From NCBI RefSeq assembly GCF_003334815.1, contig NZ_QOWO01000095.1: a stretch of 1,721 nt of DNA, one strand, 5' to 3'. A program made the position numbers and the translations under genes. The notes beneath the pieces were generated by a model that worked only from the letters and a program-made list of their open reading frames with translations, was not told the origin of the DNA and ran no database searches. This document shows, in pieces, positions 1,184 to 1,461 of this stretch (position 1 is its first letter; each line of letters begins with the position of its first letter). Source of the DNA: Escherichia coli. Lineage in GTDB: Bacteria > Pseudomonadota > Gammaproteobacteria > Enterobacterales > Enterobacteriaceae.

Positions 1184-1210
1184 GATATTTTGTGGCTCAG
1201 TTCTGTAACT

Positions 1211-1253
1211 TTTCCCGTAACATTGTCTGTTGTTACGGGAAAGTCCGGTTTTT
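1211..1253 (+). terminator. Putative intrinsic terminator for the upstream ORF: 12-bp perfect inverted repeat plus downstream T-tract
   Basis: TTTCCCGTAACA (1211-1222) and TGTTACGGGAAA (1231-1242) are exact reverse complements, separated by an 8-nt loop (ttgtctgt). The hairpin begins 28 nt after the ORF stop. A TTTTT run sits at 1249-1253, but 6 nt after the stem rather than directly against it, so the terminator call is tentative. Confidence 0.45.
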
Positions 1254-1332
1254 GTATTGCACCAGAGAATACCCAGACTGTGATGCTGCCACAGCGTCAG
1301 CAGGCTTTCTGAACGGTGTAACATCACTTCAT

Positions 1333-1351
1333 GTTAATGATAATCACTATC
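1333..1351 (+). promoter_or_regulatory. Putative Fur box (iron-responsive operator) upstream of the colicin promoter
   Basis: GTTAATGATAATCACTATC matches the 19-bp Fur consensus GATAATGATAATCATTATC at 17 of 19 positions (mismatches at positions 2 and 15), counted by eye. It ends 9 nt before the -35 hexamer. This agrees with my recollection that colicin Ib expression responds to iron limitation as well as to SOS. Confidence 0.55.
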
Positions 1352-1359
1352 ATCAAATC

Positions 1360-1388
1360 TTGACATGCCATTTTCTCCTTAATAAATT
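1360..1388 (+). promoter_or_regulatory. Sigma70-type promoter of the colicin gene (-35 TTGACA, candidate -10 TAAATT)
   Basis: A perfect consensus -35, TTGACA, at 1360-1365. With a 17-bp spacer the -10 would be TAAATT at 1383-1388, which keeps the three most conserved positions. The LexA box lies immediately downstream, the usual colicin promoter arrangement. The exact -10 and transcription start are not determinable from sequence. Confidence 0.6.
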
Positions 1389-1390
1389 AA

Positions 1391-1410
1391 TACTGTATAT
1401 GTATCCATAT
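1391..1410 (+). promoter_or_regulatory. LexA operator (SOS box) overlapping the predicted transcription start of the colicin gene
   Basis: TACTGTATATGTATCCATAT: the left half, TACTGTATAT, matches the LexA consensus TACTGTATATATATACAGTA exactly. The right half is degenerate (CTG-N10-CAT instead of CTG-N10-CAG). Its position, just after the -10 and ahead of a colicin gene, fits the known SOS control of colicins. Confidence 0.7.
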
Positions 1411-1448
1411 GCGTAAGCAGTTAATTCATTTGTTTTCCTCAGAGGATG

Positions 1449-1454
1449 AAGGAG
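1449..1454 (+). promoter_or_regulatory. Ribosome-binding site of the colicin gene
   Basis: AAGGAG at 1449-1454, 7 nt upstream of the ATG at 1462-1464. Confidence 0.75.
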
Positions 1455-1461
1455 ATACCGA

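Follow-up and report, generated by a model that had tools for sequence, protein, structure and literature searches.

A yagA-colicin intergenic region from Escherichia coli that very probably belongs to an IncI1-type (I-complex) conjugative plasmid

Introduction

The colicin I locus, its double control by Fur and LexA, its convergent immunity gene and its home on IncI1 plasmids have been described since the 1980s. Here, we analyze a stretch of 1721 nucleotides from Escherichia coli (assembly GCF_003334815.1, contig NZ_QOWO01000095.1), called the window throughout this text, with a focus on positions 1184-1461. These positions separate the plasmid gene yagA from the 5' part of a colicin Ia/Ib gene; very probably, they form the spacer between yagA and cia on a conjugative colicin plasmid of the IncI1 type (I-complex). 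The feature as such is already known and very common.

The colicin Ib promoter, Pcib, has one LexA binding site (PMC4675545); a Fur site located upstream of its -35 hexamer and repression dependent on iron are also reported (PMC4675545, PMC3879352). Mitomycin C and iron chelation by diethylenetriaminepentaacetic acid (DTPA) each induce this promoter, and both together result in maximal expression (PMC3879352, PMC4675545). The operons of group A colicins such as ColE1 and ColK likewise have an SOS promoter, whose LexA site follows the -10 hexamer (PMC4675545). However, they carry two overlapping LexA boxes and a lysis gene of their own and reside on small high-copy plasmids, whereas a locus of the type found in the window combines one LexA box with a Fur box, has no lysis gene and is located on a large conjugative plasmid (PMC4675545, PMC3879352, PMC7374059). 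Group B colicin systems do without lysis genes, and colicin Ib of Salmonella is set free through lysis mediated by prophages (PMC7374059).

Two kinds of sequenced plasmids serve as close references for the window. The IncI1 archetype ColIb-P9 (NC_002122) shows the same order of yagA, Pcib-cib and a convergent immunity gene, with the same 278-nt spacer between yagA and the colicin gene. It is 99.4% identical to the window without any gap, the 10 substitutions all lying in 1295-1644 and none in the yagA part. Its -35 and -10 hexamers, LexA box and ribosome-binding site are as in the window, while the Fur box differs at position 1345 (C in the window, T in ColIb-P9). The C-terminal domain of its colicin and its immunity gene, which is convergent and lies 17 nt after cib, are of the Ib type. 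The colicin Ia IncI1 plasmids CP024481, p3682_I1 (MW077915) and pEC14II_2 (KU932027), all typed MOBP/MPF_I, match the window at 1721 of 1721 bases, thus without any difference. Here, yagA and cia are followed by the convergent immunity gene iia, 21 nt downstream, and by a DUF6404 gene.

The intergenic region and its plasmid context

The region is delimited by two genes, both read from the + strand and both truncated by an end of the window, and it contains a compositional boundary:

1-1183, + strand: 3' part of yagA, in frame from position 2, covering residues 56-448 of a 448-residue protein, with its stop codon at 1181-1183
1462-1721, + strand: start of the structural gene for colicin Ia/Ib (first 86 codons), most likely cia
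1318-1461: right half of the spacer, rich in AT (31.9% GC) and moving together with the colicin gene; its left edge is that of the cassette common to IncFIB ColV plasmids

Since the TGA stop codon of yagA occupies 1181-1183 and the ATG of the colicin gene 1462-1464, positions 1184-1461 constitute the complete intergenic region of 278 nt. The upstream frame is open from position 2 up to this TGA, and the downstream frame runs from the ATG off the right end of the window. In identical plasmids, the matching position of the first gene is annotated as 'protein YagA', and all identical records carry a colicin annotation on the second open reading frame. The spacer as a whole has a guanine-cytosine (GC) content of 38.8%, compared with 47.7% and 48.8% for the flanking coding parts. 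The preliminary description of the window had contrasted an AT-rich intergenic region with GC-balanced coding regions, which applies to the right half only (1318-1461); the left half (1184-1317) has 46.3% GC and is not AT-rich.

The whole window matches 1344 plasmids in PLSDB, of which 1276 are predicted to be conjugative; most of the matching plasmids are from Escherichia, followed by Salmonella and Shigella. Among complete E. coli genomes, it was found in about a fifth (1014 out of 5426), at 1240 places in total, of which 1215 are on plasmids and 25 on chromosomes. Many complete plasmids are identical over all 1721 bases, and given this identity to hundreds of sequenced IncI-type conjugative plasmids, the stretch can be called ordinary. 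Nine of the 100% identical records were sampled, and statements on the replicon type of the window and on everything beyond position 1721 are drawn from identical records. Eight of the nine are I-complex plasmids of 87-105 kb with the types MOBP/MPF_I according to the PLSDB typing, and the ninth is a multi-replicon plasmid. Together with the 1344 PLSDB matches, this agrees with the earlier suggestion of a ColIa/ColIb-type (IncI1-like) plasmid or a derivative thereof. The backbone order of repZ, a gene of the ProQ/FinO family, yagA and the colicin gene is seen both in ColIb-P9 and in the identical records. It had also been noted that no resistance cassette or end of an insertion sequence (IS) is visible in the window. 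Indeed, the window is colinear with ColIb-P9 without gaps and 100% identical to many uninterrupted plasmids.

A number of observations weigh against this placement. The sequence context beyond position 1721 is that of identical records and would apply to the window by extension. The MOB-suite labels of the eight I-complex plasmids are IncI-gamma/K1 (seven) and IncK2/Z (one), not IncI1/B/O. One of the nine identical copies lies, with the same neighbours, in CP060110, a 358-kb multi-replicon plasmid (IncFIA/FIB/HI2A/N; MOBF/MPF_F). A small number of E. coli places, 24-25 of approximately 1100-1240, are chromosomal, even at E <= 1e-100. Finally, when the rep region of CP024481 is taken in full, R621a (96.9%) is nearer to it than R64 (94.9%), and the term IncI1 holds only for the Inc RNA determinant, checked in one record (CP024481).

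The last point follows from a direct comparison of rep regions, which was made because the MOB-suite label does not mention IncI1. In this comparison, the rep region of CP024481 was set against those of R64, ColIb-P9 and R621a (stretch 1-1486 for R621a). In the Inc RNA stem-loop region, CP024481 has the same sequence as R64 and ColIb-P9 but not as R621a (IncI-gamma), so it is IncI1 by its incompatibility determinant. The rep region of plasmids with an identical window is a mosaic, with an Inc RNA like that of R64 and ColIb-P9 and a repA coding part nearer to that of R621a, and this mosaic is probably the reason for the IncI-gamma/K1 label given by MOB-suite. One of the nine identical records was named p3682_I1 by its depositors. 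Overall, 'IncI1-type' is a fair description of these plasmids, and 'I-complex' is the safer one.

Alternative locations and an alternative colicin

The same locus could also have reached a replicon outside the IncI group by acquisition of the IncI yagA-cia segment, for instance an IncF plasmid, a ColV plasmid or a multi-replicon cointegrate. CP060110, with its 100% identical copy and the same neighbours, is such a case: it carries an IncI-type segment and is in that sense a derivative. The cia cassette alone is moreover common on IncFIB ColV plasmids, which account for approximately 10% of the E. coli matches in spread samples. One of these, CP062858, shares its Fur box, promoter and LexA box with the window, carries the colicin Ia gene and the convergent Ia immunity gene, and is 98.0% identical to the window from position 1318 onward. 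Its homology stops at 1318, however, and its left neighbour is not yagA but a 3'-5' exonuclease gene with yacAB, on a MOBF/MPF_F replicon with colicin V genes nearby. Because this cassette sits on IncFIB ColV plasmids, the colicin gene and its promoter are not diagnostic of an IncI plasmid; it is yagA and the spacer part 1184-1317 that link the window to the IncI backbone. The IncFIB ColV copies have only 1318-1721 in common with the window, differ from it at 8 of these 404 positions and lack yagA, and with I-complex plasmids making up eight of the nine sampled identical records, a non-IncI replicon is quite unlikely as the source. A chromosomal location, through integration of a plasmid or on a cassette of another element, is the least probable of all the readings considered here: besides the chromosomal places mentioned above, the 5' part of the colicin gene is present at ten chromosomal places, but chromosomal places amount to approximately 2% and none occurs among the full-length or near-full-length matches listed in any sample, including those obtained with a tightened E-value or by spread sampling with the colicin part only. 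Nearly as improbable is a third possibility, namely that the promoter is an orphan remnant and a functional colicin gene is missing, the situation found in R621a and in numerous IncI, IncK and IncZ plasmids. In approximately 30% of the E. coli matches, R621a included, yagA and the entire spacer are kept but the colicin open reading frame breaks off after its first 17 nt, at window position 1478. In R621a and the other colicin-less IncI, IncK and IncZ plasmids, the retained part is approximately 98.8% identical to the window, the colicin and immunity genes are absent and the sequence after 1478 is unrelated. Such orphan copies on colicin-less I-complex plasmids imply that the promoter alone does not predict a colicin gene. 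The window is not of this type because it continues for 243 nt past the breakpoint, in frame and in perfect agreement with intact cia genes.

A further alternative concerns the identity of the colicin on the favoured I-complex plasmid, as the gene could be cib, encoding colicin Ib, and be followed by an immunity gene of the Ib type, as in ColIb-P9. The window itself cannot separate the two by its protein, as colicin Ia (CP024481) and colicin Ib (ColIb-P9) both begin with exactly the 86 residues encoded here. Homology between the two extends to approximately nucleotide 1335 of cia (residue 445), whereas the last 200 amino acids are only 43.5% identical, and the Ia and Ib immunity proteins look unrelated when read side by side. 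Accordingly, records of the Ib type are approximately 98.7% identical up to nucleotide ~1335 of cia and lose homology there. Among colicin loci adjoining yagA in PLSDB, the Ib type even seems to be commoner (approximately nine versus four in a spread sample of 40 rows). Nonetheless, ColIb-P9 differs from the window at 7 of the 278 spacer positions and at three coding positions. The spacer of the window is present with at least 99% identity in 190 PLSDB records, and 187 records contain at least 80% of a query spanning the yagA 3' part, cia and iia, i.e., nearly as many complete Ia loci. All nine sampled identical records, moreover, have the order yagA, cia, a convergent gene for 'colicin 1A immunity protein' (iia) and a DUF6404 gene. 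Based on the spacer variant, the two record counts and these nine records, the colicin is most likely Ia, and colicin Ib is very unlikely.

For a gene of colicin Ia or Ib, the immunity gene had been expected downstream on the opposite strand. This is its position in all nine identical records, where the Ia immunity gene is convergent and lies 21 nt after the colicin stop codon. The expected lack of a lysis gene was borne out in CP024481, the one Ia locus scanned, in which the 2.4 kb after cia contain no open reading frame of 25-70 amino acids with a lipobox. For annotation purposes, a suitable label for the window is yagA-cia junction on a plasmid of the IncI1 type, with colicin Ia as the probable product and with the reservation that a colicin promoter by itself proves neither an intact colicin gene nor an IncI replicon.

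In all nine Ia records, the next gene after that for Ia immunity is the one of the DUF6404 family (115 amino acids, + strand), located at 8640-8987 of the stretch from one of them and at the same position in the other eight. At the corresponding position in ColIb-P9, no such gene is annotated.

Elements of the colicin promoter

The right half of the spacer contains the following elements:

1333-1351, + strand: Fur box GTTAATGATAATCACTATC, matching the consensus GATAATGATAATCATTATC at 17 of 19 positions, directly upstream of the -35 hexamer
1360-1388, + strand: sigma-70 promoter, with -35 TTGACA at 1360-1365, a spacer of 17 nt and -10 TAAATT at 1383-1388
1391-1410, + strand: single LexA (SOS) box TACTGTATATGTATCCATAT, immediately downstream of the -10 hexamer and spanning the predicted start of transcription
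1448-1454, + strand: Shine-Dalgarno sequence GAAGGAG, 7 nt before the ATG, as read from the sequence and invariant in the alignment

A Fur box, a sigma-70 promoter and one LexA box in the layout published for Pcib thus make up what had been described as the characteristic promoter of colicins Ia and Ib. From the Fur box through to the ATG, all compared contexts retain this core with few substitutions. For the Fur box, 200 shuffles gave no match, and the box is kept in every aligned context except for one substitution in ColIb-P9. The promoter hexamers match the consensus at 10 of 12 positions in a promoter scan and are invariant in all six aligned contexts.

The LexA box calls for more caution. 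Its left half TACTGTATAT is a perfect consensus, and with an extended, half-site-weighted pattern that tolerates up to two mismatches, two sites are found in the window where 0.03 would be expected; the better of them, at 1391, has a single mismatch. Against this assignment, the right half departs from the consensus (CCAT instead of ACAG, which gives two mismatches to CTGT-N8-ACAG), and the loose pattern CTGT-N8-ACAG with two mismatches is unspecific in the window, with 15 occurrences found against 6.3 expected. The full LexA consensus of 20 nt, with three mismatches allowed, has no match in the window. The functional assignment of the LexA box would thus rest on the literature for Pcib.

Proposed regulation and release

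The right half of the spacer may be regarded as the control region of the colicin gene, in which a Fur box, a sigma-70 promoter and a LexA box over the transcription start would be followed by a leader of approximately 65 nt with a strong ribosome-binding site. The left half (1184-1317) would be backbone sequence that closes yagA with a hairpin terminator. Fe-Fur and LexA would each repress the colicin promoter, so that full colicin synthesis would be expected when iron starvation and DNA damage occur together. We infer this double repression from the near-identical colicin Ib promoter, for which it was shown experimentally, because the window has the -35 and -10 hexamers and the LexA box of ColIb-P9, with a single deviation in the Fur box. 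The proposal is weakened by the fact that the experiments concern the colicin Ib promoter, while Fur/LexA control of this exact Ia variant is a prediction from its sequence. The toxin would be made without a lysis gene of its own, and the producing cell would be shielded by the product of the convergent immunity gene approximately 20 nt past the colicin stop codon.

The upstream gene yagA and the left half of the spacer

On these plasmids, yagA is a gene of the I-complex backbone, and no function is assigned to YagA. The plasmid name stems from the systematic gene naming of ColIb-P9, and we assume no link to the chromosomal yagA of K-12. Local sequence searches with YagA against Pfam-A, NCBIfam, PADLOC, PHROGs and the PDB returned nothing significant. 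Homologues are found across Enterobacterales, with the precomputed Pfam family PF27227, and one homologue is named 'DUF1173 family protein' by one source. In an alignment of 23 members, C60, C62, H91 and C95 are invariant, and a C-terminal motif P375-D376-F377 ... E394-T395-x-G397 is present. An AlphaFold2 model of the protein has a predicted local distance difference test (pLDDT) score of 80.6 and a predicted template modelling (pTM) score of 0.71, and its C-terminal domain is predicted to take a restriction-endonuclease-like (PD-(D/E)XK) fold. Directly 3' of yagA, I-complex plasmids vary in their cargo: some have cia, some cib, others an orphan promoter or clbS together with ISEc53. Given the Cys/His cluster, the predicted PD-(D/E)XK fold and this variable cargo, YagA could conceivably be a nuclease that takes part in cargo exchange, plasmid establishment or defence, a reading that is rather unlikely at this stage. 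YagA, rather than the spacer, is the unexplored element here and offers a lead.

A putative terminator follows the gene:

1210-1253, + strand: terminator-like hairpin and T-run, with perfect 12-bp arms at 1211-1222 and 1231-1242, a loop of 8 nt and the T-run at 1249-1253

In terminator and inverted-repeat scans, TCCGGTTTTTG comes after the 12-bp inverted repeat, and the terminator-like site lies 30 nt past the yagA stop codon. The left 147 nt of the spacer (1184-1330) have an RNA folding energy of -48.8 kcal/mol (z = -3.86), i.e., they fold more stably than shuffled versions. This hairpin probably ends yagA transcription. An Rfam scan of the whole window at a permissive threshold resulted in two chance-level matches only, both within yagA, and in no RNA family in the spacer. 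Open reading frames at 1190-1312 (+), 1192-1416 (+) and, in antisense, 893-1327 were considered mechanical and taken as non-genes, the spacer being unannotated in 40 of 40 sampled records.

Partial and interrupted copies

Other plasmids carry parts of the region or copies with insertions. The boundary of homology with IncFIB ColV plasmids at 1318 coincides with the drop in GC content, and in CP062858 (stretch 7001-9382) the cassette lies a few kb from the colicin V genes. Orphan copies are located at 5387-5715 of the R621a stretch and at 4967-5295 of a stretch from another plasmid, corresponding to 1184-1478 of the window. There, sequence unrelated to the window lies downstream of the colicin promoter, which points towards parA- and impB-type genes encoded on the other strand. 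A further type of plasmid is homologous from window position 1219 onward with 94% identity, and its left flanks are unrelated.

Three plasmids have an insertion within the span of the window. In pDETEC33 (IncK2/Z; stretch 6221-8107), the LexA box is split by a ClbS/DfsB-family gene and ISEc53 (ISL3 family), and an 8-bp duplication places window positions 1397-1404 at either end of the insert. Directly upstream of the clbS-like gene, the colicin promoter's Fur box, -35 and -10 are left in place. In CP042631 (stretch 6174-8880), an IS66-family element with an 8-bp duplication is found at 1350-1357, between the Fur box and the -35 hexamer, and the colicin gene is annotated as fragments. Finally, NZ_CP122819.1 (37576-40632), otherwise identical to the window, gives a match in two pieces over 3057 bases with an IS3-family transposase annotated under it, which represents an IS insertion of approximately 1.3 kb somewhere within the span of the window.
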